Virus record (IMG/VR): IMGVR_UViG_3300030392_000429
Location: 1 to 47,259 of that record
DNA from: a virus
Direction: 5' to 3' (one strand)
DNA length: 47,259 nt
The position numbers and the translations under genes were made by a program. Below are positions 5,350 through 45,899 of this stretch, in pieces; position 1 is the stretch's first letter; each line of letters opens with the position of its first letter. The notes beneath the pieces were generated by a model. That model was not told where the DNA came from, did no database searches, and saw only the letters and a list, made by a program, of their open reading frames with translations.

Positions 5350-5365
5350 CACTAATAGCGTTATG

Positions 5366-5815
5366 CTATGGTGTGGGCCACTCGCGGTTTAGGGCGTAGT
5401 CGATGATGCTGCTGCCAGCCACGAATTGCGGGAAATCCAGCCACTCTGGCGGCAGCGTCTGGCGCTCAAATATTTCCACCTCCGCTGTGTACCGAAGCAG
5501 CGTTGGGCTAATCATCGTTGGCCCGGAATAAATATCCGTAAAGCTCACTCGCTCCATATGGCATCCGCGCGCCGTCTTGACAGGCATATCATGCCATGCT
5601 GCGCCGTCCTCGATGCCATAGCGGAACCATAATTCTAATAACTGCGCCTGCCCGTTAGTCAGCACCCATTCTAGTTGCACAGTCTGAGGTACTGACGTAA
5701 AACGCCGCCGCTGTCTAGCCCTACCGCTGGCGAGCTGGCTGCGCAATAGTGGCGAAACGGTCTGAACGCTATGCCCCTGCTGTAGCGCCGCTGGTAACTC
5801 ACTGGGATAATTCAT
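5366..5815 (-). CDS. Hypothetical protein, probably tail-tip associated (149 aa)
   Basis: ATGA overlap (5812-5815) with the J-like gene. Sits between the central tail fibre gene and the tailspike. No motif recognised. Confidence 0.55.
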   Translation of the reverse strand: MNYPSELPAALQQGHSVQTVSPLLRSQLASGRARQRRRFTSVPQTVQLEWVLTNGQAQLLELWFRYGIEDGAAWHDMPVKTARGCHMERVSFTDIYSGPTMISPTLLRYTAEVEIFERQTLPPEWLDFPQFVAGSSIIDYALNREWPTP

Positions 5816-8544
5816 GCGGGCGGCTCCGAGTTATCGTAATCATAAACACGCGAATCATAATTGACCGCTTGAACACTGACGGCGCTAAACCCCTGCGGCT
5901 CAATACTGGCAATCAACGCCGGATAGCTAAATGTCTGCGATACACCGAACATATAATGCGGCAGCTCTTGGGAATAATCGACCGTGGGCGCATCGCCATT
6001 ATACACCACTGTATAGCTGTCAGTGCCGCGTGTTGCTGTGTACGGGCCTTTTAGTAGACCTTGCGGGTCACGCCATGCGATAAGGTGCGTTTCTCCAGCT
6101 CGCCAGTCTAGCGGCTCGCTGGTTCGGATGGTTGCTTGCCCGCCGCCGCTAGACGCCTGCATCACTAGGCCGCTTGACGTATATCCCGGCACATCATCCG
6201 CCAGCGCGCAATATGACCAGTAATTTGAGTTCAGCGCGTCCAGTTCCGTGCTAAACGAATACGTTTTGCGGCGATAGCGCAACCGCAAACGCTCGCGCAT
6301 ACCTAGACGCCATGCGCGTGTCCGGCTGGTAACACCTTCGATGCGGATTTTCTCAGGACGATTGCCAGCATCGCCCGGCAATCGGCATTCCACTGTTTCG
6401 TTTGTCCACGTTTCGCTGCTAAAAAACTCTACGTCGATGCCATCAATTTCATCTGGCCGGATAGACTCAATGCTGCGCGTCAACGGATCCATCATGTTCT
6501 GCGTGGTGTACATCTGCTCAAAGGTGCTACGAGCCTCATCACGCACGGGCGTTAGCAGCCCTTGGCTAATCGTTAGCTCGGCAGCGCCCGCCCTAAGTGT
6601 GCGCTGCATCACTTCGTAAACCGTACTGCTGCCGTCATGCACAAAGTCGAACGTGTCGCCGCGTGCTTCCCATATCGCCGCCAAGCGCTCTAACTCGTCT
6701 TGGTCTAAATCGTCATCGGTGTGGCCAATATTGCGCGCCACATAGCGGAACCAATCGGCAATGCTGCGGCTAGGTTCTTCTGTCTCGGTGCCAAGTGTAG
6801 GTATTATTCGCGTGACCACGGCGCTGACTTTGTTTTCAGACTGCCCCGCAATCGTGTCGCTGCCCTCGACTGTCAGAGCCACGGTGGTGACGCCTGGGTA
6901 AGTTGATTTAGCAGACAGTTGAGACTTTAGGCCGAACCATTCGAGGCGGTCTAGGTCTTGAACGCTCGTGCCCTCAATGCTGGTGCGGCGCAAGCGAACC
7001 TCTGGCGTGATTGTTGCGCCGAAATTGGTAAAAAACGTCCACCCTAGCTGATCACGAGTCCCGCCCTGAATGTTGCGCCTGTCAGTATTCCAAGCGGTAT
7101 CACCCACGGCGCGCCATTGCAATTCAACATCTCGGCTCCGATTTTCGATTGCGCCATCATCTTTAACGCGTCCTAAGCCTTGCGGGGCGAATACGTCCCA
7201 CTCCACGCCGGATACTGACTCACCTGCCGGGCAACCCAAGAACGGCCCTGCCCATTCGCCATTGACTTCTTCATCAGACACGCGAATAAACGGACTGTTG
7301 CTGCGCTGCGACGGAAAGCCTAGCCAGCCTGCATCCTCCGTGCCATTGGGCAGCAGTTTGGTGACAGTGAAGCCGATATTAATCGCAGGCGTTCCGCCGT
7401 CATCAATAAACGCATCAATCCGGTAGCGCGCTCCTACGCGGTCAATCGTGTTGATATACGTCCCGCTTGTGGGTGACGTGACTGCCGTCAGGTCGGGATA
7501 ATCGAGCGTAATTTCAGTCGCGCTAACGCTGGCGATTGTATAAGTACCATCCAGCGCGCCGCCGTAAATAACCACTTCGTCACCGATGGCTAGCCCTAAA
7601 TCGCCAAACGCGCCACTGAAAACCGCATGGTCGTCGGTCATCGGGTCGGGCGGAGGATTAGCGACAATCTGCCGAGGAATACGGACATTTAGCTCTAGCC
7701 CTACCGTCCAGTCTGTCGGCACTGTATCGCCGCTGACGCGTGTCACGTTGACGCCGTTCACATCTACGCTCGATACGTCCCAAACGATAGTCACGTCAGA
7801 AGGAGATTTGAGCCGCAAGCCTGCCCCGCTACCCACGCTTGCGCCCACCTCGGGGGCGTTATACCAGCAGCGATGCGCCGGGTGGCTGGTAACGTCATCG
7901 CCCGGATCGAAGATTGACAAGTTGACCTGCTGCCCTAGCGCGCTTAATGGCGTAGCGCCTATGCGTATTTGAGATTGCGGAATAAGGTAGCTGCCTTTGC
8001 CGATGCAGGTAAACACGTCTACCGCAAGGTTGCGCTGGTCAATAAAGTAGCGGCGCGGCTGGTTCAGGTAATCAGGAAAAACCTTGTGCTGACCTGCAAT
8101 CTCTGGAATCACACCACCGAGCTTGGGTCGGTTGGCCTGGACATTGGGATCATAAATTGAGCTGCCCTGATTCTGCCCGCGCGCTTGATTAACGCCTGGA
8201 ACGCTTGGCAGCAGGAAGCCAAAAATATCACCAATTAGTCCAACGGCTGCATTAACAACACTTCCAACCGCGCTAACAACACTGCTAATCGCGCTCCCGA
8301 TAGCATCGACTGCACCGGATTGGGGGGCGATGTAAATATCAATGTCCGCGCCTGTTAGCGATAAATTAGACCACTCGCTAGGCGGCACAGTGCGCCCATC
8401 CTGCTTGACCACGATTGGATGGCTGTCAGCACTCAGGTCAAAATCCGGCACATTGTCAGCGAGCCAATCGGCTAGCGTTCCGCCGTCAACGCGATGCGTC
8501 TCTATCGGCTCGCCGGGCAGCATCGACGGGTACACTCGAATCAT
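5812..8544 (-). CDS. Host-specificity / central tail tip protein (lambda J-like, GTA g15-like position)
   Basis: 910 aa from ATG 8544 (ATGA overlap with the NlpC/P60 gene). Called from size and from the order TMP - DUF1833 - NlpC/P60 - large protein. The track ORF extends to 8598. Confidence 0.75.
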   Translation of the reverse strand: MIRVYPSMLPGEPIETHRVDGGTLADWLADNVPDFDLSADSHPIVVKQDGRTVPPSEWSNLSLTGADIDIYIAPQSGAVDAIGSAISSVVSAVGSVVNAAVGLIGDIFGFLLPSVPGVNQARGQNQGSSIYDPNVQANRPKLGGVIPEIAGQHKVFPDYLNQPRRYFIDQRNLAVDVFTCIGKGSYLIPQSQIRIGATPLSALGQQVNLSIFDPGDDVTSHPAHRCWYNAPEVGASVGSGAGLRLKSPSDVTIVWDVSSVDVNGVNVTRVSGDTVPTDWTVGLELNVRIPRQIVANPPPDPMTDDHAVFSGAFGDLGLAIGDEVVIYGGALDGTYTIASVSATEITLDYPDLTAVTSPTSGTYINTIDRVGARYRIDAFIDDGGTPAINIGFTVTKLLPNGTEDAGWLGFPSQRSNSPFIRVSDEEVNGEWAGPFLGCPAGESVSGVEWDVFAPQGLGRVKDDGAIENRSRDVELQWRAVGDTAWNTDRRNIQGGTRDQLGWTFFTNFGATITPEVRLRRTSIEGTSVQDLDRLEWFGLKSQLSAKSTYPGVTTVALTVEGSDTIAGQSENKVSAVVTRIIPTLGTETEEPSRSIADWFRYVARNIGHTDDDLDQDELERLAAIWEARGDTFDFVHDGSSTVYEVMQRTLRAGAAELTISQGLLTPVRDEARSTFEQMYTTQNMMDPLTRSIESIRPDEIDGIDVEFFSSETWTNETVECRLPGDAGNRPEKIRIEGVTSRTRAWRLGMRERLRLRYRRKTYSFSTELDALNSNYWSYCALADDVPGYTSSGLVMQASSGGGQATIRTSEPLDWRAGETHLIAWRDPQGLLKGPYTATRGTDSYTVVYNGDAPTVDYSQELPHYMFGVSQTFSYPALIASIEPQGFSAVSVQAVNYDSRVYDYDNSEPPA

Positions 8545-15139: not shown

Positions 15140-15177
15140 AAAAAAGCCCCATAAAAGATATAGGGCTTATTGTAGCA
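15140..15177 (-). promoter_or_regulatory. TGCTACAAT extended -10 fused to hairpin/T-run that contains the SD of the next gene
   Basis: Minus strand reads TGCTACAAT-AAGCCC-tatatcttttat-GGGGCTT-TTTT-ATG. Confidence 0.45.
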
Positions 15178-16551: not shown

Positions 16552-16782
16552 TCAGCAAATCAGCCTAGCCTTTCTTATTGCGTCAGCAATCGACACTTTG
16601 ACGTCATGATCTACTTTCCCATTAACACTGCTCCAATCTGGTAGCCTGATTGACGCCCGATAACCAACATTCCCAACAGGACGATCAATTTCCAGTTTGC
16701 CTAGAAATTCTGCTTGCGCCCACAAGCTGTCCAGCGTGCTGCTTTGCTCTGCTGCGTATCCAATGACTGTCAAATTATTCAT
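16552..16782 (-). CDS. Hypothetical protein (76 aa), first gene of accessory operon
   Basis: ATG 16782 with SD AAGGAG 7 nt upstream. The longer track ORF (to 16896, TTG) would run through regulatory motif A. Confidence 0.6.
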   Translation of the reverse strand: MNNLTVIGYAAEQSSTLDSLWAQAEFLGKLEIDRPVGNVGYRASIRLPDWSSVNGKVDHDVKVSIADAIRKARLIC

Positions 16783-16802
16783 ATCGATGCTCCTTGTTAT
16801 CA

Positions 16803-16855
16803 ACACCCCAAACAATAGCCCACTCCACCACCTGCCCGCTAATGGTATTTTTCTA
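16803..16855 (-). promoter_or_regulatory. Repeated upstream element, copy A
   Basis: Minus strand: TAGAAAAATACCATTAGC-20 nt GC-rich-TATTGTTTGGGGTGT. The 21-mer is identical to copy C and the 15-mer is identical to copy B. Confidence 0.55.
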
Positions 16856-16895
16856 TCGACTAACGCCACACGATAGCCACCGCCTATAAACGGCA

Positions 16896-16919
16896 ACGCC
16901 CCGGTAGGTGCCGGGGCGT
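16896..16919. other. Perfect 9-bp GC-rich hairpin
   Basis: acgccccgg-taggtg-ccggggcgt. On the minus strand it is followed by tgccgtttat (weak U tract). Confidence 0.5.
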
Positions 16920-17004
16920 CTAGTACACGGGTGTCGCTTCACAGCGCCGTGCCTATTGTAGATATGGATCACCTCGCTTTGGCGTCGTGGCCGTATCTGA
17001 TTTT

Positions 17005-17040
17005 AGTGTAGCACAAAAAAAGACCGCTACGTGAGCGGGC
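17005..17040 (-). promoter_or_regulatory. Terminator-promoter cassette (hairpin, T7, then TGCTACACT)
   Basis: Minus strand: gcccgct-cacgt-agcggtc-ttttttt-g-TGCTACACTAAAATC. Confidence 0.45.
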
Positions 17041-17311
17041 TATTTAATTAATTGTGTGCGGCGGCCGGTGCTGATCTCCGGCTTGTGGGCGATAGGCGTG
17101 GACTGGACGCCTCGTTTTATAGCTGCGGGTGTGCGTACTGCCCGCCTTACTGCTTTCCGCACCTGTTCGGCCAAAGGCAACTAATTACCAGCCCCGAACA
17201 GCTCTCGCTCCACTGATTAGCTCAGTCAGCACCTGCGCATTCACCACACCACCAATACTATCCCACGCGGGGCACCGGGTCAATTATCCACCCCACATAA
17301 ATAACACCCAT
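17041..17311 (-). ncRNA. Candidate structured non-coding RNA or micro-ORF region between two tandem minus-strand terminators
   Basis: No ATG-initiated ORF of useful length on either strand. Several hairpins are present (ctgttcgg..ccgaacag, gcggg..cccgc, ggcgt..acgcc, ccgg..ccgg). Confidence 0.2.
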
Positions 17312-17336
17312 AAAAAAGACCGCCAGAAGGGCGGTC
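17312..17336 (-). terminator. Intrinsic terminator (minus strand)
   Basis: Minus strand: gaccgcc-cttct-ggcggtc followed by tttttta. Confidence 0.65.
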
Positions 17337-17454
17337 AATAGGAGGAGCAACACACAACACAACAAGGAGTAGGTAGAGTATGGCGTTAAGCGGTGGGATC
17401 GTCAAGTGATAGCGTCAGGCTATATGAAATATTAACGCCATTGATAAAATCAAT

Positions 17455-17483
17455 TTTACCCCATCCACCTGTGGTGCAATACT
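17455..17483 (+). promoter_or_regulatory. Sigma70-like promoter for the + strand moron
   Basis: TTTACC, a 17-nt spacer ending in TGC, then AATACT. Lies 30 nt upstream of ATG 17513. Confidence 0.4.
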
Positions 17484-17512
17484 GAACTTACACCAACCGT
17501 GGAGTGTGAAAA

Positions 17513-17815
17513 ATGAACGACATCAAAAAACTACCTAAATGGGCGCAGCAGCGGATTGAGGAAGCAGAGTCAAAGCGCAATATCAGCGAGTACGGCGCTA
17601 ACATTGAAAACGTCCATGTTGAAAACAACGCAATCAAGCATACTGAACATACGGCTACAGCTATATGCTCTATCGCTGATGCGTTGATTCAAAACTCGCA
17701 AGCCAACATCGCAAACGCTGAGGCCATCAAGCAACTAGCCAAAACTATGCACAGTGAGGGATTGGAAGTTGAGTTTGGGCCAGGGATTCAACTAAGCGAT
17801 GTTCGCCATCGGTAA
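17513..17815 (+). CDS. Hypothetical protein (100 aa), opposite-strand moron inside the structural arm
   Basis: SD GGAG. Lys/Glu/Asn/Ile-rich sequence, visibly AT-richer than its flanks. Has its own promoter-like element and terminator. Confidence 0.7.
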   Translation: MNDIKKLPKWAQQRIEEAESKRNISEYGANIENVHVENNAIKHTEHTATAICSIADALIQNSQANIANAEAIKQLAKTMHSEGLEVEFGPGIQLSDVRHR

Positions 17816-17820
17816 AAATA

Positions 17821-17847
17821 AAAGCCCGCGCAATGCGGGCTTTTTTA
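17821..17847. terminator. Bidirectional intrinsic terminator
   Basis: aaaaataa-aagcccgc-gcaat-gcgggctt-ttttatt. There are T-runs on both strands, between convergent genes 17513..17815 (+) and 17895..18278 (-). Confidence 0.8.
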
Positions 17848-17894
17848 TTCCTCAGACCCGTCAATACAGGTATGGCAGGTTTACGCCGTGGTGT

Positions 17895-19124: not shown

Positions 19125-19799
19125 TTAAGACGCATCAGATAGCAGGAATCCATAGGTGCCGCGCATTTCTTCCCGATCATTCAGCCACTCTTCTAACGTC
19201 TTATCCCGCTTATCCCTATTATGCTCAGCCCATAGCGGGGCTAGGTTAGCCAGCTTGTTTATTTCCTTTGGGTCGAAGATGCCGGATTTAACCATCCTCG
19301 ACACTGGGTTAATGTGGTCTATGTGCCATTCGCCGTAATTGGCCCAGCTCATGCCCGGCTGCATGCATGATTCAATCCTCTCTTTTAGCTGAACCGCTGT
19401 ATAGCCAAGTATCCGATTGGTTTTATTTGACTTAGTATAGCCGATGTCTCTAACGTGCCGCTTGAGAAGCGCCCTGCATATTTCAGACACCTTGAAGGAT
19501 TCTGAGTTCGCGTAAAGCTCGCGATAGTATTTATTCTGATCCTCTTTTTTGTCTTGATAGCGTACTCTTTTGTACTCCCTAACCCTTTCCCTATTTTCCT
19601 GATACCAGTCGTTTGTTCTTGCTTTTGCTTTCTCTGGATTTTCATTAGCCCACGCCTTGGCTTTTTCAATCGCGCACTGTCTGCAAGAGGTGTATTTGAC
19701 GTTTCTCTCGCTGATATGTCCATGCTTGCACATGATCCCTGTGAAATAATACTTCATCCCAAGATTCTTGGCGTCTTCGCGGCTAATAATATGCAGCAT
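19125..19799 (-). CDS. Free-standing HNH homing endonuclease
   Basis: 224 aa. EWHIDHINPVS...NLAPLWAEHNRDKRDK (H-N-H core). AT-rich. Flanked on both sides by terminator-promoter cassettes, between the capsid and gp49-like genes. Confidence 0.75.
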   Translation of the reverse strand: MLHIISREDAKNLGMKYYFTGIMCKHGHISERNVKYTSCRQCAIEKAKAWANENPEKAKARTNDWYQENRERVREYKRVRYQDKKEDQNKYYRELYANSESFKVSEICRALLKRHVRDIGYTKSNKTNRILGYTAVQLKERIESCMQPGMSWANYGEWHIDHINPVSRMVKSGIFDPKEINKLANLAPLWAEHNRDKRDKTLEEWLNDREEMRGTYGFLLSDAS

Positions 19800-22641: not shown

Positions 22642-22650
22642 AGTATAGCA
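22642..22650 (-). promoter_or_regulatory. Extended -10-like element TGCTATACT upstream of head genes
   Basis: Reverse complement of agtatagca, 29 nt upstream of ATG 22613. Confidence 0.45.
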
Positions 22651-22723
22651 CAAGGCTATCGTGGCGTGCAAAGTGGTGCAACCATGTCGTGCATGTCCAC
22701 GGTTTGGTGGCTCATCAAGGTGG

Positions 22724-23046
22724 CGTTACGACGAAAAACAGCGCGCCGTTACAGCCGTTACAAACGTTACAGCCCTAATTAAACTTGTACCGCATAAAAA
22801 TTCAATGGATTCAAGTGCTTGTGACATATATAACAATAATTACAGAAAATAGATATATATATAGAGGTCTGGCTCTCTAAGTGACTGTCAGTGTTTATGT
22901 ATATGTGACTATCGTTCGAAAAACAGCGTAACAAACGTAACGGTTGTAATTTTTTAATAAAAACAATCAGTTAAGATAAAAAATAGCGGTACGCAGGCGT
23001 TACGCCATTTTAAAACGTAACGATTGGCCGTTGACGTAAGCGTAAG
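22724..23046. repeat. CGTTAC/GTAACG hexamer arrays flanking an AT-rich (TA)n core
   Basis: CGTTAC at 22724, 22747, 22756 and 22765 (9-bp phasing). GTAAC at 22927 and 22936 (9-bp phasing). Further copies at 22997 and 23015, plus CGTAAGCGTAAGC at 23034. CGAAAAACAGCG is repeated at 22728 and 22914. Confidence 0.8.
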
Positions 23047-23065
23047 CTGTGCGTATTTCCGCACA

Positions 23066-23089
23066 CAAAAAACCCGCCGGGGTGGCGGG
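23066..23089 (-). terminator. Intrinsic terminator (minus strand)
   Basis: Minus strand: acccgcc-acccc-ggcgggt-tttttgtgtg, downstream of gene 23113..23337. Confidence 0.7.
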
Positions 23090-23112
23090 TTGGGGGCGCG
23101 AATGGTGTGCCG

Positions 23113-24649: not shown

Positions 24650-24985
24650 TTAAAACTCCGCGCTCAAATAATCCCACTCGCCTATCTCGATGTCGTCAAC
24701 CTCTGATTCGAGTTGGCAGTCTGAGTTGCAATAGATTTTGCCAGACTGGATGTAGCCATCTGACGCAGCCATGCCATAGCTTTCAAAACTGTAGCGACAG
24801 CCCGCGCAATGAACTCCGTGAGTGCTGCCTACTTTAGAATGCTTAATCTGATTAACTCCCGTTGCGTTGTCTGTATAGAGACAATAAACCCCAGCGGCTG
24901 CCAGGGCTAATGGTATTTTTCTATCGTGTAGCGGCGGGTGATATGGGTTAGCTATCAGGATCAAACGCCGCTCTCTGCTTTTCAA
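24650..24985 (-). CDS. Cys-rich (CxxC...CxxxC) small protein, start codon uncertain
   Basis: HCAGCRYSF...IYCNSDCQ zinc-ribbon-like. Upstream element C and a GGGAG SD lie inside the long ORF, and there is no ATG/GTG/TTG after that SD. Confidence 0.45.
   Translation of the reverse strand: MKSRERRLILIANPYHPPLHDRKIPLALAAAGVYCLYTDNATGVNQIKHSKVGSTHGVHCAGCRYSFESYGMAASDGYIQSGKIYCNSDCQLESEVDDIEIGEWDYLSAEF
24881..24923 (-). promoter_or_regulatory. Repeated upstream element, copy C
   Basis: Minus strand: cgaTAGAAAAATACCATTAGC (21 nt identical to copy A)-19 nt-TATTGTCTC. Confidence 0.5.
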
Positions 24986-27687: not shown

Positions 27688-27722
27688 TTAAAAAGCCCTC
27701 ATAGTGTGAGGGCAGTATAGCA
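27688..27722 (-). promoter_or_regulatory. TGCTATACT extended -10 fused to hairpin/T-run that contains the portal SD
   Basis: Minus strand: TGCTATACT-GCCCTC-acactat-GAGGGC-TTTTT-AA-ATG. Confidence 0.5.
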
Positions 27723-27739: not shown

Positions 27740-28708
27740 TTATGGGCGGGAATAATGCTCGAATAATCCTGAGCAGCGCTCCTCTCTTTCCCCATCATCG
27801 TTTCTGATCACAGGATTGTTGTCTCCCACCATATTTAGAATTTCATACCTACCGCCTTTGATTAATTGTAACGCACTAGTCGTGCAAATAATCCAATCAC
27901 CCGCCCGCCAATTTGCCGGGTCATCCATGTCGTCTACTGGCTGTGGTTGTTTTCGGTAGCCCTGCTGGTACAGTCGCTTGGAAAAGCTATGGAAATTATC
28001 AGACGCCTGCACATGGCTAACCATCTCCTCAACCGCGCGGTCTTCTTCGGTGGCTAATGCAGCAGAAGCGCGCTTCTGACATTCAAGGCGCGATGACTGA
28101 CAGGCATTGTGTGCTATCCATTCCAAAGCTTCCATCATGCGCTCTACGCAAGTCGCTTGCGGGTGAAAGCCATCATCGCGCAAATCTTCGGCGCACTGTT
28201 TGGGGCTTGGAATTGGCAAATATCCTTCCTCTGCGACTTCCTCACGCTCCCCCACCTCCGGCACCCATTGTTTGCTAGTCATCTGCGGCTCATCACCAAC
28301 CGCATTCGTCGCGCTCAGGATTTGGGATAGAGTGAGTTGGCGCTCTCCCCATCCTGAACCGTTATATCCATGGTACAGATTATCGATTGTCTCGCGCCAT
28401 CCAAAATAAGGATAAAACTGTCCATCCGACGGATACTCCCCCTTCCCCGCCCCCGCCGCCATAAACGCCTCTGCCACGGCGTGATAGTCGTCTTCGGTCA
28501 GGTCTTTGGTGGCGATGTAATCGCCGGGTTGTAATGTTACTGCCGAGCCATCCTGATTCGCATCACTCTGCTTCTCACGCAGCACCCACCCGCCGCCATG
28601 CTGAATAACCTCGTGCGTATGCGTCAGCCCCAGCCACGTGCGCTCCAGTTTGGCGTCTAACTCGGTGGCGAAAGGTTCGCCGTTGTTGCGCGCGATTAGG
28701 TTTATCAT
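27740..28708 (-). CDS. Hypothetical protein (322 aa)
   Basis: ATG 28708 with SD AAGGAG, directly downstream of upstream element B. No motif recognised. Confidence 0.65.
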   Translation of the reverse strand: MINLIARNNGEPFATELDAKLERTWLGLTHTHEVIQHGGGWVLREKQSDANQDGSAVTLQPGDYIATKDLTEDDYHAVAEAFMAAGAGKGEYPSDGQFYPYFGWRETIDNLYHGYNGSGWGERQLTLSQILSATNAVGDEPQMTSKQWVPEVGEREEVAEEGYLPIPSPKQCAEDLRDDGFHPQATCVERMMEALEWIAHNACQSSRLECQKRASAALATEEDRAVEEMVSHVQASDNFHSFSKRLYQQGYRKQPQPVDDMDDPANWRAGDWIICTTSALQLIKGGRYEILNMVGDNNPVIRNDDGEREERCSGLFEHYSRP

Positions 28709-28735
28709 GGTTGGTTGCTCCTTTTCGTTGTGTTT

Positions 28736-28786
28736 ACACCCCAAACAATAAACCACCCATGGCAGGGCTGATAATTGTAATTTCTA
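28736..28786 (-). promoter_or_regulatory. Repeated upstream element, copy B
   Basis: Minus strand: TAGAAATTACAATTATCAGC-16 nt-TATTGTTTGGGGTGT (15-mer identical to copy A). Confidence 0.5.
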
Positions 28787-28939
28787 ATGATGTTGCGCGG
28801 TGGTGATGGGTTTTTCTAATTGCCGCTGCGCATACTCAGCAACGGCTTGATACAGCGCCGGGTTTGTTGTCTGCCAGCGCTGCACGGTGCTGGGTGACTT
28901 GCCGATGAGGGCTGCTATGCGGCGGATGGATGGGTTCAT
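28784..28939 (-). CDS. Small HTH protein (51 aa; possibly 67 aa from GTG 28987)
   Basis: IRRIAALIGKSPSTVQRWQ is helix-turn-helix-like. Stop TAG 28784-28786. Confidence 0.5.
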   Translation of the reverse strand: MNPSIRRIAALIGKSPSTVQRWQTTNPALYQAVAEYAQRQLEKPITTAQHH

Positions 28940-28997
28940 TGCACACGATCCCAGCGTCCTTTTGTTTTGGTCGTCGAAACGGCGCACCCGCGCGCCG

Positions 28998-31284: not shown

Positions 31285-31328
31285 ATACTAGCACAAAAAA
31301 CCCCTCAGTACGCAGTACGCAAGAGGGG
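31285..31328 (-). promoter_or_regulatory. Terminator-promoter cassette (hairpin, T6, g, TGCTAGTAT)
   Basis: Minus strand: cccctc-16 nt loop-gagggg-tttttt-g-TGCTAGTAT. Separates the early block from the packaging genes. Confidence 0.55.
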
Positions 31329-32692: not shown

Positions 32693-32976
32693 ACCTCCAC
32701 CCCCAGCCGTTGCAGTTGATCAATAATGGCGGTTAATTCAGTGATAGGGTCGTTCCATCTGACATCGAGATAAACACTCTCGTAAAGCAGCGGTTCAGGC
32801 CACGTGGCAGCAGGCGCGATGTAATCCATTCTGGAATCACGCACGCAAACGGTCAATTCTTTCGTATGCGCCGCGTAATTAACAAACACGTGCATTGTGT
32901 CGCATTTAATCGCTGCGGCCTGTATGCGGTCGCATAGGGATAGTATCGAATGGTTTTGGATAGATGTTGTGGTCAT
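32689..32976 (-). CDS. Hypothetical protein (95 aa), first gene of block D
   Basis: SD GGAGGAGG. Downstream of upstream element D. Confidence 0.55.
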   Translation of the reverse strand: MTTTSIQNHSILSLCDRIQAAAIKCDTMHVFVNYAAHTKELTVCVRDSRMDYIAPAATWPEPLLYESVYLDVRWNDPITELTAIIDQLQRLGVEV

Positions 32977-33004
32977 ATGTTTACCTCCTCCGTTGTGATA
33001 CCAA

Positions 33005-33048
33005 AAGTATGCGCCCGCCGTGGCGTGGTGGCTAATGAGTAATTTCTA
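33005..33048 (-). promoter_or_regulatory. Repeated upstream element, copy D
   Basis: Minus strand: TAGAAATTACTCATTAGC-20 nt GC-rich-ATACTTTTGG. Confidence 0.45.
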
Positions 33049-33086
33049 TGGGTAATCCTAAAATTTAAGGTTTTGGCTATTTGGAT

Positions 33087-33390
33087 AAATAGCGGCTAAA
33101 TAGCGGGCTGCTTAGCAATTAAAACATCCGTTTAAAACAAGCGTATGATAGGCCTATAAGATACTGTTTTATATATATTTTTATATATTTCTTTCACTTC
33201 TTATAGACATAAAAAAACCGCACAATAGCAGGATAGCAGCTTAGTAGGGGCTGCTTTGCTATTTGCGGTAATTTTGATTTTGAAAGGGGGTGGCTGCTTA
33301 GTTGCTATCCTGCTATCCAGTTGATTTAAAAGGGTTATCAGCCTAGTAGCAGGTTAGCACGTTATTTTCGGTTTTTGTTTAAAAACAAGC
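33087..33390. repeat. Iteron/inverted-repeat cluster with AT-rich core (candidate replication origin)
   Basis: AAATAGCGG x2 (33087, 33098). ATAGCAGGATAGCAGCTTAGTAG (33225-33247) is inverted at 33294-33316 (20/23 identical). TAGCAGGTTAGCA at 33345. GTTTAAAACAAGC repeated at 33130 and 33377. AT-rich tract at 33155-33218. Confidence 0.75.
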
Positions 33391-33409
33391 ATTTAACGCC
33401 ATTCATCAA

Positions 33410-35701
33410 CTATACACCCACGCGGTAGAATTTGGCAACTACCCGGCCATTACCTGCGTGCTTGTACTCGCGTTTTTCAATGCGACCAGTGGCGACAAGA
33501 TGATCAACCGCTTGCTCTACGTCATCTCGCGCCCACTTGCGACAACGGTTAGCAATCACGCCGATGGTCTCGCCGTCTTTATCATCAACCAGCGAATAGA
33601 TGCGCGCCATCAATGCCTCCCCCTGGCTGCTGGCGTCCGTGCGCTTTTCTAACTGGTTGGAATGCGCCAGCATGATTTTCTCGTCAATGTCCTGGCGAAC
33701 AAACGCATACGCCCAACGGACGTGGCTAGGCGTGCGCACGCCTTCCGGCCCTGCTAGTATCAGCGACACCTTGGAAACCTGCTCATAGGCGCGCCGGACG
33801 ATGGCTTCAAGCCCCGTTCGACCCTTGTGCTCCTCTGCGTACTCTTCCACCCAATCGGCTACTTGCTCAAGCATATCGAGCGCCTTGGCCTCAGTGGGCA
33901 CTCGCGTCGGTTCGTTGTAGTTTTCAATGCGTCCGCTTTTACTATCAAAGCCGCCGGGGCTGTACAGGTTTTGCAGCGCAGACCGAAGTCCCATGCTCAT
34001 TGGCTGCTTTTTAAAGCCACGCTTGCGCTTCGGGTTGGTTTCCCGCTCACGCACTAACACCGCCCTGCCAATAAACCCGTTGGTGGCCTGCTCCGCCGTC
34101 ACCAGCTCGTCAAATGTCACTGGCGTAGTGAAGCCAATGAGTGATAGAAAAGGCCGCTCTAGTCCTGTGTCTATCATGTCCAGGGCACGCTCTATCTCTT
34201 TGGTACGCGCTGACATACGTCCGCACGGATCGTCGCCTTCATCAATGGCCTTTTTCGCTTGTGCATATTCGCGCAATAACAGGCCGCGCACTTCTTCTTT
34301 CATATCACCCGTTAGCAGCATGAAACCGTTGGCCTTTGAATATGCAGACATCAGAAGTCCGATAATGCCATCCAGGTAGGCAGCGCCGCCGTTCTCCTGC
34401 GCCTTGGTAATCTTGCGCAGTAGGTAGCCCAATTCGTCAATGATGTAATAGGCGCTCTGCTGGCGGACTAGGTTTCGCGTTATCTCTTGCTCAGATTTGA
34501 TAGATCCATGCACCGCTGATTGAATGCCCGCCGCTTGGTGCACTGCCGAAGTCGCCTGCAACACCGCCTCCTTCCCCGTAGCCGATGCGGAAACGCAGAA
34601 CATGAACAGGTTGGCGGTCACGCCGTCTTTATCGTCAATCATGCGCAGGCCAATGATATTACCCACCGCCACCAGCGACGCGGCTACGGCTAAACGCTCA
34701 CGCGGGAAGCGCGATTGACCGTTAATCCACTCAGTGACCTTACCCACAAAGCCGGGTGGGCGAAGTAGGTCAATGCTGTCAATGGGGAAGGGGTGGCCGT
34801 CAGGCGTAGGCGCTTCATCCTCAACCACTGGGAACGTGACCGGGCGTTGATACCCGTTGGCCTCCGCTTTGGCGATAAGCGTGCCCAGCGTTATGGGGTT
34901 GGGCGACTTGCCGAAGCTATGCCACTTCTTGTCCATGCCCCACGGGTTGTACTTTTGCGACCGTTGCGCCCACTCTTGCCACAGCGTGAAGCCATCATTG
35001 TCGCCCCCGGTGGTGTGGTGGATACCCATACCTACCGAAACATAATCATCATAGTGGGCGTCATCGTTCGGCACTGACTTGAGTATCTCGCGCAATTCGT
35101 CTAGTGACACGTCCACCGATTCGCCGGACACGCGCCCCCGGTGGTGGTCTGGCCTGCGCAATAGCGCAATCAAATCCCCTGGGGCGTCGGTTAGGTCGTC
35201 TGGGTTGCCTTTTTCGGTTTCGTACTCGGCGCCGCTGGCATGTAATGAGCTAGCGCCCACGACGAACCCACTCGATTTAAAATCCAAGCCGGGGTAGTCG
35301 TGCAAGTGCTGAACCAGTGACACGCCTGGGGGCCGTTTGAACTCAATATGCCAGCCGCCTCCCCCGGTGGCGACCACATGGCCAGATAGCGCTTTAAAAT
35401 CCAAGCTCAAATTAGCGCACAGCTTGCCGTAGGACTCAAATCCCCCGTTACGTGGGTCTACGTCAATGATTAACTGGTCGTCAATGCACACGCCAAACCC
35501 AGTGGCAAACTGGCCCGTTTCGGTCATCGCGTCAATTTGCTCTTCCGACCAGTGGGGTGAATGTTGCCAGTTCGATATGCGAGGGTGCTTCCCTTTTGCG
35601 GTACATTCTGGATCTTCGCAGCCACATGCGCCATCCGGCTTTATTTCATGTAGCGGAAAGACGCGGCGTCCTGCGTCGATGTAGTCGTGGATGTTAGCCA
35701 T
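33410..35701 (-). CDS. Primase-helicase (Prim-Pol N-terminus, PriCT-like middle, P-loop C-terminal domain)
   Basis: 763 aa. VFPLHEIKPDG...KGKHPR, IIDVDPRNGG and GGGGWHIEF are Prim-Pol motifs. YDDYVSVGMGIHH..FTLWQEW is PriCT-like. SASATGKE is a P-loop-like motif. Confidence 0.8.
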   Translation of the reverse strand: MANIHDYIDAGRRVFPLHEIKPDGACGCEDPECTAKGKHPRISNWQHSPHWSEEQIDAMTETGQFATGFGVCIDDQLIIDVDPRNGGFESYGKLCANLSLDFKALSGHVVATGGGGWHIEFKRPPGVSLVQHLHDYPGLDFKSSGFVVGASSLHASGAEYETEKGNPDDLTDAPGDLIALLRRPDHHRGRVSGESVDVSLDELREILKSVPNDDAHYDDYVSVGMGIHHTTGGDNDGFTLWQEWAQRSQKYNPWGMDKKWHSFGKSPNPITLGTLIAKAEANGYQRPVTFPVVEDEAPTPDGHPFPIDSIDLLRPPGFVGKVTEWINGQSRFPRERLAVAASLVAVGNIIGLRMIDDKDGVTANLFMFCVSASATGKEAVLQATSAVHQAAGIQSAVHGSIKSEQEITRNLVRQQSAYYIIDELGYLLRKITKAQENGGAAYLDGIIGLLMSAYSKANGFMLLTGDMKEEVRGLLLREYAQAKKAIDEGDDPCGRMSARTKEIERALDMIDTGLERPFLSLIGFTTPVTFDELVTAEQATNGFIGRAVLVRERETNPKRKRGFKKQPMSMGLRSALQNLYSPGGFDSKSGRIENYNEPTRVPTEAKALDMLEQVADWVEEYAEEHKGRTGLEAIVRRAYEQVSKVSLILAGPEGVRTPSHVRWAYAFVRQDIDEKIMLAHSNQLEKRTDASSQGEALMARIYSLVDDKDGETIGVIANRCRKWARDDVEQAVDHLVATGRIEKREYKHAGNGRVVAKFYRVGV

Positions 35702-36233
35702 TGTTCATTTTCTCCCGCATCTGCATGTTTTCTTCCACTGTTCCGCGCAATAGCCCCATACTCTCCATTTCCAACAGATGGGCATAAATCCACTCATCTT
35801 CTGTTGAGTAAACCTTGCATTCATTAACCAAAAAATCTTGCGTAATGAACCTTACATTAGTGGGTCTGCCATCCATAAACGAAAACAACTGCAAGGCATA
35901 TAACCCTTCATCCTTACCGATAATTTGCCCTTGGTTGTGGATTTTTCCATTTTTGTAAGCGTGGACGAACAGCCCATCGAATCCGCTGTTGTTCATCGGT
36001 TTTGCTCCATTCATTTTGGGCGCATCCTTTACGCCTTTGCTTTGATTGCATGACCGGCACGCGGCCACAAGGTTGGCAATATGGTGGCTGCCACCCTTTG
36101 CAACTGGTACCACATGGTCTATTTGTAGCTCTGCGTTTTTACCTTCTGCGCCACAATAAACGCATGTGTAACGGTCGCGGCGCATAACGCGCATTTTCGC
36201 CGCGTCGCTTGGGCCTTCTAGTCGTGCTGTCAT
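35694..36233 (-). CDS. HNH endonuclease with unknown C-terminal domain
   Basis: 179 aa. CVYCGAEGKNAELQIDHVVPVAKGGSHHIANLVAACRSCNQSKG is a classic HNH motif. The 3' half is visibly AT-rich. Confidence 0.8.
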   Translation of the reverse strand: MTARLEGPSDAAKMRVMRRDRYTCVYCGAEGKNAELQIDHVVPVAKGGSHHIANLVAACRSCNQSKGVKDAPKMNGAKPMNNSGFDGLFVHAYKNGKIHNQGQIIGKDEGLYALQLFSFMDGRPTNVRFITQDFLVNECKVYSTEDEWIYAHLLEMESMGLLRGTVEENMQMREKMNNG

Positions 36234-36448: not shown

Positions 36449-36497
36449 TGTCTAGCCCCTTAGTTGATGCCTCTATTCTGGGGCATGAAAAAAAATG

Positions 36498-36526
36498 TTG
36501 CAAGCCGTTTTTACCGTTGCTATAGT
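36498..36526 (+). promoter_or_regulatory. Near-consensus sigma70 promoter for the rightward arm
   Basis: TTGCAA, a 17-nt spacer ending in TGC, then TATAGT (TGCTATAGT). Lies 35 nt upstream of ATG 36561. Confidence 0.6.
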
Positions 36527-38237: not shown

Positions 38238-38804
38238 ATGATTGACCAAGAAACTCTAAAAGAGCTAATACATTATTGCCCGACTAGTGGTAAGTTCACT
38301 TGGAAGATAAGGAGCAGAAAGTGGTTTAAGACAGAGCGCTCATGTCAGTCATGGAACAACCGATACGCATGTATGCGCGCCGGATCAGTTAGAAAAAAGG
38401 CAAGTGGCTACGAGAGAGAGGCCATAGGTATATTCAACAAGCTTTACCTTTCTCACAAATTGGCATGGCTTTACATGACCGGCATTTTTCCTGATTTCGA
38501 GATTGACCATAAAAATAGAAACGCATTGGACAATAGATGGGATAATTTGCAGCAGTCAGATGGTTTTAAAAATCATCAGAATATGAGCATGTTTAAAAAC
38601 AACAAGAGCGGTGTTTGCGGAGTTTACTTTGACAAAAGAATAGGCCGATGGGTCGCGGATGTGTTTGCTAAAGGCGTTAAGCACCGACTAGGCACCTATA
38701 GCGTTGAACATTTAGATATTGCGGCAATGGATGTAATGGAGAAAAGAATATCATTGGGCTTTAACCCTAATCATGGATTGGCTAAAGCTCATTACCATAA
38801 ATAG
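38238..38804 (+). CDS. HNH homing endonuclease (HNH_3 plus AP2-like domain)
   Basis: 188 aa. LSHKLAWLYMTG...EIDHKNRNALDNRWDNLQ, then SGVCGVYFDKRIGRWVADV..KHRLGTY. AT-rich insert between the SSB and exonuclease genes. Confidence 0.8.
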   Translation: MIDQETLKELIHYCPTSGKFTWKIRSRKWFKTERSCQSWNNRYACMRAGSVRKKASGYEREAIGIFNKLYLSHKLAWLYMTGIFPDFEIDHKNRNALDNRWDNLQQSDGFKNHQNMSMFKNNKSGVCGVYFDKRIGRWVADVFAKGVKHRLGTYSVEHLDIAAMDVMEKRISLGFNPNHGLAKAHYHK

Positions 38805-42034: not shown

Positions 42035-42387
42035 AAAACGCACTACCCAGCGAGCACGCTGAACAAGTGACGCTAGTCAACTGGTTTCGCACCACGTATC
42101 CGAACGTGCGCATTATCGCCATACCCAATGGCGGCTTTCGTGACCACAATACCGCCAAAAAGCTAAAAGCCGAAGGAGTGCTGCCAGGCGTGCCAGACCT
42201 GTTTATCCCAGAATGGAACCTATGGGTAGAGATGAAGCGACAGAAAGGCGGTCGGCTGTCAGCAGAGCAAAAGGACTGGATTCAGTACCTCGACGCCTGC
42301 AATTATGCTGTTATCGTGGGCTATGGTTTTGAGGATGCAAAAGAGAAGCTGATAGTTTTTGCCCGCAACAAGACTGCAACCCAATAA
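42031..42387 (+). CDS. VRR-NUC domain nuclease
   Basis: 118 aa. EHAEQVTLVNWF...IPNGG...GVPDLFIPEWNLWVEMKRQKG (D..E.K). Confidence 0.8.
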   Translation: MKNALPSEHAEQVTLVNWFRTTYPNVRIIAIPNGGFRDHNTAKKLKAEGVLPGVPDLFIPEWNLWVEMKRQKGGRLSAEQKDWIQYLDACNYAVIVGYGFEDAKEKLIVFARNKTATQ

Positions 42388-42400
42388 ACAAAATCAATTA

Positions 42401-42422
42401 GCCACCCCGCGCTAGGGGTGGC
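42401..42422 (+). terminator. GC-rich hairpin without a clear U tract
   Basis: gccacccc-gcgcta-ggggtggc followed by agtatttg. Between the VRR-NUC and SNF2 genes. Confidence 0.3.
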
Positions 42423-42465
42423 AGTATTTGACAGGCAAGGCAACACGACACAATCAGGAGTGGTT

Positions 42466-43833
42466 ATGGAATATCACGAATTTATACAGGCCAAGCGCCA
42501 CAGTATAGGAAATCAGGGATTCGACCCCGTGTGGATGCCTGATTGCGCGTTTGATTTTCAGCAAGAGATTATTAGCCGCATTGTCAAAAAAGGCCGCGTC
42601 GGACTGTTTGCCGATACCGGCCTGGGCAAAACGCTAATGCAGCTCGCGTTTGCTTACAACGTGGTTAAGAAAACTAACAAGCGCGTATTGATTCTCACGC
42701 CGCTAGCAGTAGCGTTTCAGTTTATCAAGGAAGCCGAAAAGCTAGGGATTGACGACATTTGCCACACGAAAACGGGCAAGTTTGATAAGTCCATTGTTGT
42801 ATGCAACTACGAGCGCCTGCACCTGCTAGACCCTGCTGATTTTGAAGCGGTGCTGCTGGACGAATCCAGTATTCTCAAAAACTTTGACGGCAAAACCAAA
42901 GAGCAAATTATTGGTTTTATCAAGCGTGTCCGCTATCGCTTATTGTCTACTGCCACTCCATCACCCAACGATTTTATAGAGCTAGGCAATAGCTCCGAGG
43001 CTTTGGGTTATATGGGCTACATGGATATGCTCGGCAAATTTTTCCGCAGTAATCAGAACAGCGTTGACAGCAATAACCGAAACATTGGTGAGAAATTCTA
43101 CTTAAAGCCACATGCCGAGCGCGATTTTTTCGCATGGGTGAACCAGTGGTCAATCATGGTTAAGCGACCTAGCGACTTGGGCTTTAGCAACAAGGGCTAC
43201 GAGCTACCAGCGCTGCACACCAACCGCCACATGGTTTACAACCGCGAGGCGTGGGTGGCAGACGGGCAAGCGTCACTGTTCGCCATGCCTGCTAAAACGA
43301 TGACCGAAGTTCGAGCCGAGCAAAAGAAAACGGTTGCTGAGCGCTGCGAACGAGCCATTGAACTAGCTGATGGCAAAACGTCTGTTTACTGGTGCAACCT
43401 CAACGAAGAATCGGCGCTGCTAGCTGAGCTTGACCCCGAAGCGGTAGAGATTAAAGGCGGCATGAGCATCGACAAAAAAGAGGACATCCTTCTGGCGTTT
43501 GCGGATGGCGACATAGGCCGATTAATCACGAAAGCCAAAATGACATCAATGGGTCTTAATTGGCAGCACTGCAACCACACGGTCTATTTCCCAACGTGGA
43601 GCTATGAGCAGTATTACCAAGCCATACGCCGCTTCTGGCGTTTTGGACAAAAGCGCGAAGTCACCTGTGACCTAGTAATTAGCGAAGGGCAAGAGCGTGT
43701 TATCCAGGCGTTGCAGGAAAAAACGCAAAAAGCTATTGACCTGTATGAGAACCTAGTCGCTAACGCTAATCGCACGTATGACGATGTAAGAAAAGGCAAC
43801 ACCCAGGCCGTGCAACTACCCTCATTTCTATAA
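42466..43833 (+). CDS. SNF2-family helicase/translocase
   Basis: ATG 42466 with SD AGGAG. FADTGLGKT (I), LLDESS (II), STATPSPN (III), MTSMGLNWQ (V), QAIRRFWRFGQ (VI). Confidence 0.8.
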   Translation: MEYHEFIQAKRHSIGNQGFDPVWMPDCAFDFQQEIISRIVKKGRVGLFADTGLGKTLMQLAFAYNVVKKTNKRVLILTPLAVAFQFIKEAEKLGIDDICHTKTGKFDKSIVVCNYERLHLLDPADFEAVLLDESSILKNFDGKTKEQIIGFIKRVRYRLLSTATPSPNDFIELGNSSEALGYMGYMDMLGKFFRSNQNSVDSNNRNIGEKFYLKPHAERDFFAWVNQWSIMVKRPSDLGFSNKGYELPALHTNRHMVYNREAWVADGQASLFAMPAKTMTEVRAEQKKTVAERCERAIELADGKTSVYWCNLNEESALLAELDPEAVEIKGGMSIDKKEDILLAFADGDIGRLITKAKMTSMGLNWQHCNHTVYFPTWSYEQYYQAIRRFWRFGQKREVTCDLVISEGQERVIQALQEKTQKAIDLYENLVANANRTYDDVRKGNTQAVQLPSFL

Positions 43834-45790: not shown

Positions 45791-45899
45791 CCAAAACCTA
45801 ACGCATCACCGAATCGTATAGAGAATTACAATTATAAATTCAGCCTAAAAACCTCTAATATCATCTCATACATAAAGCGAAGCATTAAGGAGAAAGGCA

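Follow-up and report, generated by a model that had tools for sequence, protein, structure and literature searches.

The viral record IMGVR_UViG_3300030392_000429, analysed here over its positions 1 to 47,259 (47,259 nucleotides, hereafter the window), carries a repeated DNA element located just upstream of several gene blocks, which raises the question of what this element does. The initial annotation had recorded four copies, A to D, of a roughly 50-bp sequence and regarded them as a candidate phage-specific promoter or operator, lacking a sigma70 -35 and dependent on an activator or an alternative factor. The repeats form a six-copy family of predicted promoter cassettes of about 110 bp. 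The promoter reading is well supported by the sequence, and we consider it probable, with moderate confidence, that the six copies are composite, regulated promoters of the sigma70 type.

Architecture of the repeated cassettes

The four copies A to D were found on the minus strand at the coordinates originally assigned to them, and two further members on the plus strand, E (45787-45902) and F (42351-42468), enlarge the family to six. A search of the window with a degenerate pattern of the conserved box returned four matches versus 0.22 expected, and four or more were reached in 0 of 100 shuffles. Moreover, a 98-column profile built from the copies recovered the four original ones at E ≤ 1e-12 in a scan of the window and detected no copy in the body of any coding region. 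Dyads and boxes may reach into the preceding gene, at its last codons or its stop codon. Both E and F are kept in the relative L243, where they show more canonical sequences (labels such as L002, L010, L092 and L243 denote relatives or metagenome contigs that were compared with the window).

The repeat that had been described as an element of about 50 bp is real, and it is longer than described, continuing on its upstream side for about another 50 nt, where an ATAG-N7-CTAT dyad lies at a fixed offset. Each cassette comprises, in this order, a [A/T]TAG-N7-CTA[T/A] dyad, 16–17 nt, an 18-nt box, a spacer of 18–21 nt (mostly 19–20) and a TAnnnT hexamer, followed by a G-rich stretch, a leader that often contains CAACG, a GGAG Shine-Dalgarno (SD) sequence and a start codon. 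The box, (G)ATAGAAAAATACMATTAGM, also written TAGRAAAWTACMATTAGM, is usually preceded by GA. All six copies are co-oriented with the gene that follows, whose SD-preceded start codon lies 28–38 nt after the -10-like hexamer.

On the minus strand, cassette A (16780-16887; E = 7.5e-13) holds the dyad ATAGGCGGTGGCTAT at 16873-16887, the box at 16838-16855, the -10 TATTGT at 16812-16817 and an ATG at 16780-16782. Cassette B (28706-28819; E = 8.4e-13) contains the dyad-like sequence TTAGAAAAACCCATC at 28805-28819, the box at 28770-28787, a TATTGT hexamer at 28745-28750 and an ATG at 28706-28708. Cassette C (24845-24955; E = 2.1e-14) carries the dyad ATAGCTAACCCATAT at 24941-24955, which overlaps the stop codon of the head-morphogenesis gene, the box at 24906-24923, the -10 at 24881-24886 and an ATT start codon at 24845-24847. 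Cassette D (32974-33080; E = 2.3e-13) consists of the dyad-like ATAGCCAAAACCTTA at 33066-33080, the box at 33031-33048, the -10 CATACT at 33006-33011 and an ATG at 32974-32976. On the plus strand, cassette E comprises the dyad ATAGCCAAAACCTAA at 45787-45801, in which TAG is the dUTPase stop codon, the box TAGAGAATTACAATTATA at 45819-45836, an AT-rich 19-nt spacer, the -10 TAATAT at 45856-45861 and an ATG at 45900; its orthologue in L243 combines the box TAGCCACAATCAATTAGC with a hairpin spacer and TATAGT. Cassette F (E = 7.5e-4) retains only an ATAG half-site (42353-42356), together with the box TAAACAAAATCAATTAGC at 42385-42402, the -10-like CAGTAT at 42422-42427 and an ATG at 42466, and in its L243 orthologue a TTAG-N7-CTAT dyad accompanies the canonical box GATAGAAAAAACCAATTAGCC.

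A 28-nt stretch of copies A and C, with 89% identity, includes the common sequence cgatagaaaaataccattagc, and the 15-mer TATTGTTTGGGGTGT is exactly the same in A and B. Judged by its sequence, copy A is chimeric, its box being of the C type and its -10 and start region of the B type. Some details of the initial annotation had to be revised. Copy B aligns better without the 2-nt indel formerly placed in it, and the B box of the relatives is TTAGAAATTACAATTAGC, with a 19-nt spacer; the -10-like box of D is CATACT instead of the one chosen before, and is in register with those of the other copies. The GC-rich spacer is not a defining feature, being AT-rich in E and in many metagenome lineages; GC-rich spacers often form a terminator-like hairpin. 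The SD and start codon noted after A, B and D are present there, and also in C, as GGGAG-N8-ATT with the ATT at 24845-24847.

The evidence for a promoter-type element, co-oriented with the genes downstream, centres on the hexamer, which none of the search patterns specified. A TATAAT-like hexamer (at least 4/6 matches, including A2 and T6) was located exactly 19 nt after the box in 11 of the 16 lineage representatives, versus counts of 2, 2, 1 and 2 at 18, 20, 21 and 22 nt and a background of at most 2 per offset in these 16 lineages. The variants observed (TATAAT, TATAGT, TATATT, TATTAT, TATTGT, CATAAT, TAGTAT and GATACT) retain the positions important for a -10. Setting the hexamer at -12 to -7 places the box at approximately -50 to -32, with its centre at about -41.5 and not between -45 and -60 as had been proposed. 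The last four bases of the box and the next two form the sequence TAGMCN, 16–18 nt from the -10, that is, at the place of a -35. It matches TTGACA at 2–5 of the six positions (mostly 3–4), position 2 always being A, and a consensus scan calls none of these hexamers; TAGACN is found in many lineages and TAGACA in one. The claim that no sigma70 -35 is present thus appears doubtful. Furthermore, the A-tract RAAAATACM, read from the alignments at -46 to -38, agrees at 8 of 9 positions, and in register, with AAAAAARNR, the consensus of the proximal UP subsite reportedly defined by Estrem, Gourse and colleagues. In one lineage the box is joined to TGCTATAAT, an extended -10 of the TGCTAnAnT class that serves as a second promoter class in this genome (see below), which suggests that both promoter classes use the same polymerase.

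On this basis we propose that the host RNA polymerase holoenzyme would read TAnnnT as the -10, that TAGMCN at the 3' end of the box would act as a weak -35, and that the A-tract of the box would provide a proximal UP-like contact for the alpha subunit. Transcription would start in the G-rich stretch just 3' of the -10 and would yield a short leader with a Shine-Dalgarno sequence. Dependence on an activator or an alternative factor, as first suggested, is possible and is not required, the geometry being compatible with sigma70 and an UP contact. Other promoter types were also considered: the Bacteroidetes -7/-33, sigma54, sigma28, sigma32 and extracytoplasmic function (ECF) consensus sequences, compared by eye, did not fit the copies, and a MerR-type operator in the spacer was ruled out, since the spacer dyads differ among copies.

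Conservation, upstream dyad and proposed recombination junctions

Conservation of the cassette in related genomes was found. L010, whose portal protein is 54% identical, has two copies with the hexamer TATATT. L092 (terminase 31% identical) carries a B-type copy in the same place after the terminase gene, ending in TTTATTGTTTGGGGTGT as in the window, and a second copy is also present. More than 60 loci with a portal identity of 41% or less contained no cassette. When metagenome contigs were scanned with the dyad and the box fixed and the gap between them free at 14–20 nt, 25 of the 37 matches had a gap of exactly 17 nt; the rest were mostly AT-rich chance matches, apart from L220 (gap 18), which looks like a genuine cassette from its sequence. 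The gap-17 set spans at least 10 lineages of 37–57% G+C, many of them without a detectable protein in common with the window in the available fragments. Looser versions of the pattern gave mostly AT-rich chance matches on viral contigs, and a profile filter was needed. In bacterial genomes only two chance-like matches were obtained, both in metagenome-assembled genomes, and they gave no pointer to a prophage or a host; a literature search with the box sequence returned irrelevant papers only. In L008 (2492-2572) and L009 (12971-13042) the C-position cassette is replaced by a diverged version in which the dyad ATAGCTAACGCCTAT is followed by TATAGTAACAATCAATTRG, a terminator hairpin (GCCGCC-tttg-GGCGGC-TTTTG) and TATGCT; by its sequence this version looks intermediate between the two promoter classes.

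The recurrence of an architecture of about 95 bp, with fixed spacings of 17 and 19 nt, in metagenomic phage contigs without detectable common proteins indicates either that a regulatory module has spread horizontally or that a widely conserved DNA-binding factor has gone unrecognised. In the genomes of uncultivated phages, the motif could help to annotate transcription units and to delimit cassettes.

The exact ATAG-N7-CTAT dyad occurs four times in the window versus about 0.7 expected, and there is no occurrence with N4–N6 or N8–N10. It is exact or has 1–2 mismatches in nearly all copies and lineages, copy B of the window being the weakest and F retaining the half-site only. Its arm variants CTAA, CTTA and TTAG are non-compensatory, which argues for a protein-type palindrome and not an RNA stem. 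Outside the cassettes, an exact ATAG-N7-CTAT at 22645-22659 overlaps the -10 of the head-operon promoter TGCTATACT, the 15-mer being identical in L003, L005 and L002, and an exact ATAGC-N5-GCTAT at 5355-5369 lies 5 nt upstream of the tail-fibre-gene promoter TGCTAAAAT. Moreover, the pentamer ATAGC/GCTAT is 2.8-fold enriched in intergenic DNA. In L239, an unrelated 44-kb phage contig, seven dyads are clustered within 1 kb (6987-7968) between a primase-like gene and the terminase genes; two of them are the stems of terminator-like hairpins, and one pair, ATAGATTTCAGCTAT-N7-ATAGAAAATTTCTAT, has the canonical ATAG-N7-CTAT-N7-ATAG-N7-CTAT arrangement with a 22-nt layout. L240 contains two perfect dyads 31 nt apart, the same spacing as that from dyad to box in the cassettes, and the sequence of the box, ATAG-N7-CMAT, can itself be taken as a second, degenerate dyad, placed 31 nt after the first one.

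The dyad, centred at about -74, would thus be the operator of a dimeric or tetrameric regulator, and a dedicated factor that binds it is likely to exist. The same dyad overlaps at least one late extended -10 promoter, and the regulator could time both promoter classes. The ATAG-N7-CTAT operator offers a concrete probe for its binding factor.

The GC-rich spacer between box and -10 folds into a strong hairpin in C (24887-24908, minus strand; -12.9 kcal/mol, z -2.6), in F (42403-42420, plus strand; CACCCC-gcgcta-GGGGTG, -19.3 kcal/mol, z -4.7) and in L010a (-16.8 kcal/mol), these three exceeding shuffled sequences at z -2.6 to -4.8. The B-type copies of relatives and L092 reach about -10 kcal/mol at only about z -1.9, and the hairpin of B in the window (28753-28765, minus strand) is weak (-6.7 kcal/mol, z -0.8); the fold of D does not exceed that of shuffled sequences (z -0.2), and A, E and most metagenome lineages have no spacer hairpin. 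A terminator scan called the hairpins of C (24908-24887) and B (28765-28753), each of them then followed by TTTATTGT. A GC-rich hairpin with a U-run directly after it is present in C, the B-type copies and L010a, and absent from A, D, E and most metagenome lineages. Copies A, L010b, L196 and L197, which lie downstream of another unit and have no spacer hairpin, show a canonical terminator abutting the dyad; in A this is a terminator-like hairpin at 16891-16920 (minus strand; GCCCCGG-cacctac-CCGGGGC with a T-rich tail), kept in all A-type relatives. The spacer hairpin was ruled out as a core feature because half of the copies and most lineages are without it, and it is better described as an optional embedded terminator, as predicted from the sequence. 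In those cassettes that directly follow a gene of a preceding unit (C, B and perhaps F), the hairpin and TTTATTGT would stop incoming transcripts, which would make them terminator-promoter composites.

The cassettes also mark points at which related genomes diverge. Segments of 1.8 kb centred on each cassette were compared by BLAST with 18 relatives. At A, homology with 13 relatives stops between +1 and +6 nt past the -10 and resumes about 500–700 nt later; at C, it stops at 0 (the final base of the -10) in six relative loci and at +26 in one; at D, the break is at +17 to +23, and relatives have an extra gene inserted there. Taken together, the breakpoints of A, C and D fall 0 to +27 nt after the -10, and that of B is on the 5' side, at -69. 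The genes immediately after A, C and D vary among relatives. Since the cassette sequence is conserved and its flanks are not, we infer that the cassette acts as a junction for homologous recombination through which genes are gained, lost or swapped. The recombination genes of this genome comprise a Sak4-type annealing protein and exonucleases, enzymes that could support recombination on short homologies. The recombination and promoter roles are compatible and not mutually exclusive. In the description of the element given by the initial annotation, both the upstream dyad and this junction role had been missed.

Alternative explanations for the cassettes

Several observations weigh against a composite sigma70-type promoter. 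The hexamers score weakly (at most 8/12 matches) and are not called by the consensus scan, and no lineage has TTGAC in place of ATTAG, as would be more readily expected with a specific factor than with sigma region 4. In the metagenome contigs, TAG...ATTAG is invariant partly because the search pattern required it. Additionally, an all-vs-all BLASTP of fragments of up to 12 kb per lineage revealed no dyad-binding phage protein common across lineages, the only common family being a WYL_2-like pair in two of them, and the early or middle timing proposed below is deduced from gene content.

Some of these points would be explained if the box were bound by a factor that the phage encodes, an activator or a sigma-appropriating protein, in place of -35 recognition. 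Such a factor would be a class II activator near -41, as in the MotA/AsiA middle promoters of T4 or with Mor/C of Mu, and the promoters would be silent until it is made. The box centre at about -41.5 and the weak hexamer scores agree with such a factor, as do a conservation far above the need of a generic UP contact or -35 and the retention of ATTAG in L092, where the proteins are 30–39% identical, and in types B, D and F, which were aligned independently. Candidates exist among the small helix-turn-helix (HTH)-like phage proteins, that encoded at 838-1227 having sub-threshold matches to Sigma70_r4 and HTH_24, and those at 44871-45200 and 28784-28987 also having HTH matches. However, PHROG, Pfam and PDB searches of the window proteins identified no homologue of MotA, AsiA, Mor, C, Ogr or a sigma factor, two of the HTH candidates are themselves encoded downstream of box promoters, and the cassette recurs in contigs of 37–57% G+C whose available fragments have no detectable protein in common with the window. 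Ordinary recognition by sigma70 with an UP contact fully fits the geometry, and in one lineage the box is coupled to a consensus TGCTATAAT. We therefore regard a phage factor of this kind as rather unlikely. A conserved host factor, on the other hand, would account for the spread across unrelated phages, and the dyad and box could be the docking site of a host LysR-type tetramer, with OxyR as the named candidate, coupling the cassettes to host physiology. ATAG-N7-CTAT is a published OxyR half-unit, and the DNA of Pf phage is reported to contain OxyR sites (PMC3378865). The dyad fits the LysR-type T-N11-A, the box supplies ATAG-N7-CMAT 31 nt after it, two dyads are again 31 nt apart in L240, and L239 presents the canonical four-ATAG layout; the 31-nt spacing resembles the contact pattern of reduced OxyR (PMC3953959). 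Furthermore, a weight matrix of P. aeruginosa OxyR sites places several cassette dyads in the top 0.2% of the window 15-mers. This matrix is, however, loose and AT-biased, and scores the B and D dyads poorly; the inner positions show neither T6/A10 of OxyR nor its AT-rich preference, and the four-ATAG layout at 10-bp intervals (dyads 22 nt apart, T6, A10) does not occur in the cassettes. The E. coli oxyR-oxyS site is far more degenerate than the near-perfect cassette dyads, and too degenerate to help as a comparison. The match to OxyR was made after the dyad had been noticed, and the seven dyads clustered within 1 kb of L239 are more like phage repressor operators. The Arc tetramer of P22 also reads TAG-type (TAGA) boxes. 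Arc is a ribbon-helix-helix (RHH) tetramer that reads its boxes in two adjacent major grooves (PMC12645479), and a phage RHH or HTH repressor is at least as likely as OxyR to be the dyad-binding protein, the small window proteins having given only sub-threshold HTH or RHH hints against Pfam, PHROG and PDB. Docking of a host LysR-type tetramer consequently seems improbable to us. We give equally little credence to its wider form, a portable module of unrelated aquatic phages (37–57% G+C) read by a conserved host OxyR/LysR-type tetramer via two sites 31 nt apart; were it true, swappable accessory-gene cassettes would be plugged into a host physiological, possibly redox, signal, and a late structural promoter would be controlled by this operator as well.

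Two further explanations dispense with promoter activity or with regulation altogether. The element might act as RNA, that is, as an intrinsic terminator or attenuator or as a structured 5' leader, without being a promoter; the terminator-like calls in the C and B spacers, the folding of C, F and L010a clearly better than shuffles and the T-rich run TTTATTGTTT after the hairpin would be in line with this. However, A, E and most metagenome lineages have no hairpin at all and D folds like shuffled sequence, conservation resides in fixed-spacing sequence blocks and not in pairing, the dyad-arm variants are non-compensatory, and the window gave no match to any Rfam family with covariance models at the gathering score. 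An RNA model would also leave the -10-like hexamer at its fixed offset without explanation, and we judge it very improbable. It is just as hard to see the repeats solely as recombination linkers or remnants of mobile elements, for instance associated with homing endonucleases, and devoid of a regulatory role. Breakpoints do gather at the cassette edges, the genome has three HNH/EndoVII genes and a Sak4/exonuclease recombination module, and in L092 the cassette is more conserved than the neighbouring proteins; yet the copies show no terminal inverted repeats or target duplications, the HNH genes adjoin none of them, and the strict co-orientation, the fixed -10 and the 3' SD and start codon are promoter features. 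This explanation is accordingly highly unlikely in our view, and a composite, regulated sigma70-type promoter continues to be the reading that we favour.

Predicted transcription units, genome context and known systems

On the minus strand, cassette D is followed by a block of five small genes (32976-31343) that ends at a hairpin with T6 (31295-31328), B by a 322-aa ORFan (28708-27740) with a terminator-like hairpin at 27695-27713, C by ORFans (24847-23113) with a terminator-like hairpin at 23071-23091, and A by ORFans from 16782 to about 15201, with a terminator-like hairpin at 15140-15168. On the plus strand, the unit of E, starting at 45900, comprises nine small ORFan genes and extends to a terminator at 1308-1322, and that of F, starting at 42466, comprises genes for a helicase, a methyltransferase, an HTH protein and dUTPase. 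Almost all cassette-headed genes are without annotated function, many having no family match and some matching only families of unknown function. The element had been thought to occur only in front of accessory gene blocks; this does not hold for F, which precedes the helicase, DNA methyltransferase and dUTPase genes on the replication arm. The first gene after C (24650-24847, minus strand) encodes a 65-aa cysteine-rich protein and starts with ATT here and in L001 and with ATG in L002, and it has either a rare start codon or has been recently inactivated.

After the hairpin of each minus-strand block, a TGCTAnAnT promoter restarts the structural genes. As the initial annotation had recognised, the box cassettes are distinct from this class, which is an extended -10 (TGnTAnAnT) found mostly before structural genes. 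Its matches lie on the minus strand in 11 of 12 cases and are mostly intergenic (2561, 5341, 14196, 15169, 17005, 19082, 19829, 22642 and 27714, plus 29250 and 31295). They can be fused to terminator hairpins, as hairpin-T6-ATGCTAnAAT or as TGCTAnAnT-hairpin-T5-ATG; in the latter form, transcription from the promoter itself would begin within the hairpin and would thus escape termination.

The cassettes would provide the ORFan blocks within the structural arm, as well as two units of the replication arm, with transcription units of their own. The separate expression programme that had been suggested for the embedded blocks is plausible, since each minus-strand block ends in a terminator-like hairpin. 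Because the box cassettes serve replication genes as well as ORFans, their activity would be early or middle, and not late. If the cassettes are promoters, a lytic phage of the siphovirus type runs two interleaved promoter classes on one strand, accessory and replication genes being served by box cassettes, structural genes by extended -10 promoters, and the units being insulated by terminators; such an arrangement would be a compact route to a timing of their own for ORFan blocks inside the late arm.

The window is a complete phage genome of 47,160 bp, circular or terminally redundant, since its first and last 99 bases (1-99 and 47161-47259) are an identical repeat. An open reading frame (ORF) of about 269 aa with a C-terminal DUF3310 domain spans the join, from 46788 to 437. 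The module set of the genome is of the siphovirus type and includes a tape measure protein, a J-like tail protein and a head protein similar to gp7 of SPP1. The minus strand, read from about 36.4 kb to 1.3 kb, encodes primase, small genes, the small and large terminase subunits and the portal, and then the head-morphogenesis protein, capsid, head-tail connectors, tape measure, J-like tail protein, fibre and lysis genes. The plus strand, from 36.5 kb via the join to 1.4 kb, encodes the Sak4-type annealing protein, single-stranded DNA-binding protein (SSB), an exonuclease, two helicases, a methyltransferase and dUTPase, followed by small ORFans. No integrase, RNA polymerase or sigma factor was found among the window genes, and the phage appears lytic because its genome is without an integrase. 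The window contains no tRNAs. Megablast and blastn searches of the window, copy A and two metagenome contigs against 50,697 phage records returned nothing useful; the nearest cultured capsid protein in the phage collection, with 47% identity, is that of Sinorhizobium phage phiLM21.

Further features were observed along this genome. The plus-strand replication arm is headed by a near-consensus sigma70 promoter at 36498-36526 (TTGCAA-17-TATAGT, with TGC before the -10 and an A8 tract upstream), and its first gene probably starts at the ATG at 36562 and not at 36495; a perfect TTGACA is located on the opposite strand within the same 110 bp. Three HNH or EndoVII-type endonuclease genes (35694-36233, 38238-38804 and 19125-19799), none of them adjoined by a cassette, are probably homing endonucleases. 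Between the primase gene and cassette D, a 434-nt non-coding hub (32976-33410) holds a long inverted repeat, GGATAGCAGGATAGCA...TGCTATCCTGCTAT, with T7 after it. It also contains an AT-rich tract, recurring half-sites of the form GCTATTT/AAATAGC and the DnaA-box-like TTATCCAAA. By these sequence features it could be an origin or a control region; the equivalent position in L239 is occupied by the dyad-rich hub. Upstream of the head operon, the non-coding region 22650-23100 contains 7 of the 30 GTAACG/CGTTAC hexamers of the genome, a pattern that looks like iterons or a pac site. Finally, the segment 17027-17301 is missing from 13 relatives and has terminator-like direct repeats at both ends (17016-17043 and 17312-17339), an arrangement suggestive of a small inserted module; a bidirectional terminator is also present at 17820-17844, within the surrounding region 17000-17850.

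Comparison with known systems shows likenesses to several of them. UP-element-assisted sigma70 promoters, such as rrnB P1 and the early promoters of T4 or T5, likewise have an A-tract in the proximal UP register directly upstream of the hexamer at the -35 position, and in phage early promoters, too, conservation reaches beyond the two hexamers. The cassettes differ from them in a -35 that is invariably TAG and not TTG, and in the 5' TAG and the upstream dyad, which are not UP features. In T4 middle promoters, the MotA box TGCTT is centred at -30, 12 ± 1 nt from the -10. Such MotA/AsiA promoters resemble the cassettes in combining a sigma70 -10 with a conserved non-sigma70 box that replaces a good -35. 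However, the cassette box is centred at -41 and ends 19–20 nt from the -10, its sequence is also different, and PHROG and Pfam scans revealed no homologues of MotA and AsiA. Morons, in the concept attributed to Juhala and Hendrix, are said to be promoter-gene-terminator units inserted between conserved phage genes. Blocks A to D similarly lie between a predicted promoter and a terminator-like hairpin, among conserved structural genes, and their content is variable in relatives; unlike morons, here a single conserved promoter family serves all blocks and a replication-gene unit, and with no integrase in this genome prophage expression is not the rationale.

With OxyR and other LysR-type sites (PMC3378865, PMC3953959) the cassettes have in common a dyad that fits T-N11-A and two dyads about three helical turns apart, from about -82 to -36, resembling the layout of a regulatory site and an activation site. 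In contrast, the dyad starts are 31 nt apart in the cassette versus the canonical 22, the inner consensus is unmatched, and the resemblance here is one of sequence.

The closest analogue of the cassette, as judged by this comparison, is the PeSL composite terminator/promoter cassette of T4-type myoviruses (Arbiol et al. 2010, PMC2839356; Comeau et al. 2014, PMC4122927, where PmSL variants are also mentioned), and the nearest concepts are PeSL and morons. Both kinds of element are short and repeated, and combine a sigma70-like promoter behind an AT-rich upstream part with a 3' SD and start codon and, in some of the copies here, a stem-loop; both adjoin ORFans that differ between close relatives; and both are located at indel or replacement breakpoints, suggesting recombination between copies. 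The differences concern the phage, which here is of the siphovirus type with a 47-kb genome, and the promoter, which has a weak -35 (TAGMCN) in place of the near-consensus -35, N17 spacer and -10 of PeSL. Moreover, the stem-loop lies inside the promoter spacer and not upstream of the promoter as in PeSL, and is convincing only in C and F and weakly in B; an extra invariant ATAG-N7-CTAT dyad is present at about -74; and the architecture is common to contigs without detectable protein similarity. The breakpoint pattern nonetheless extends the idea behind PeSL, that of regulatory cassettes as recombination junctions for gene shuffling, to a very different type of phage. What is unusual here is the conservation of the layout across unrelated metagenomic phages, together with a putative factor that binds the operator.

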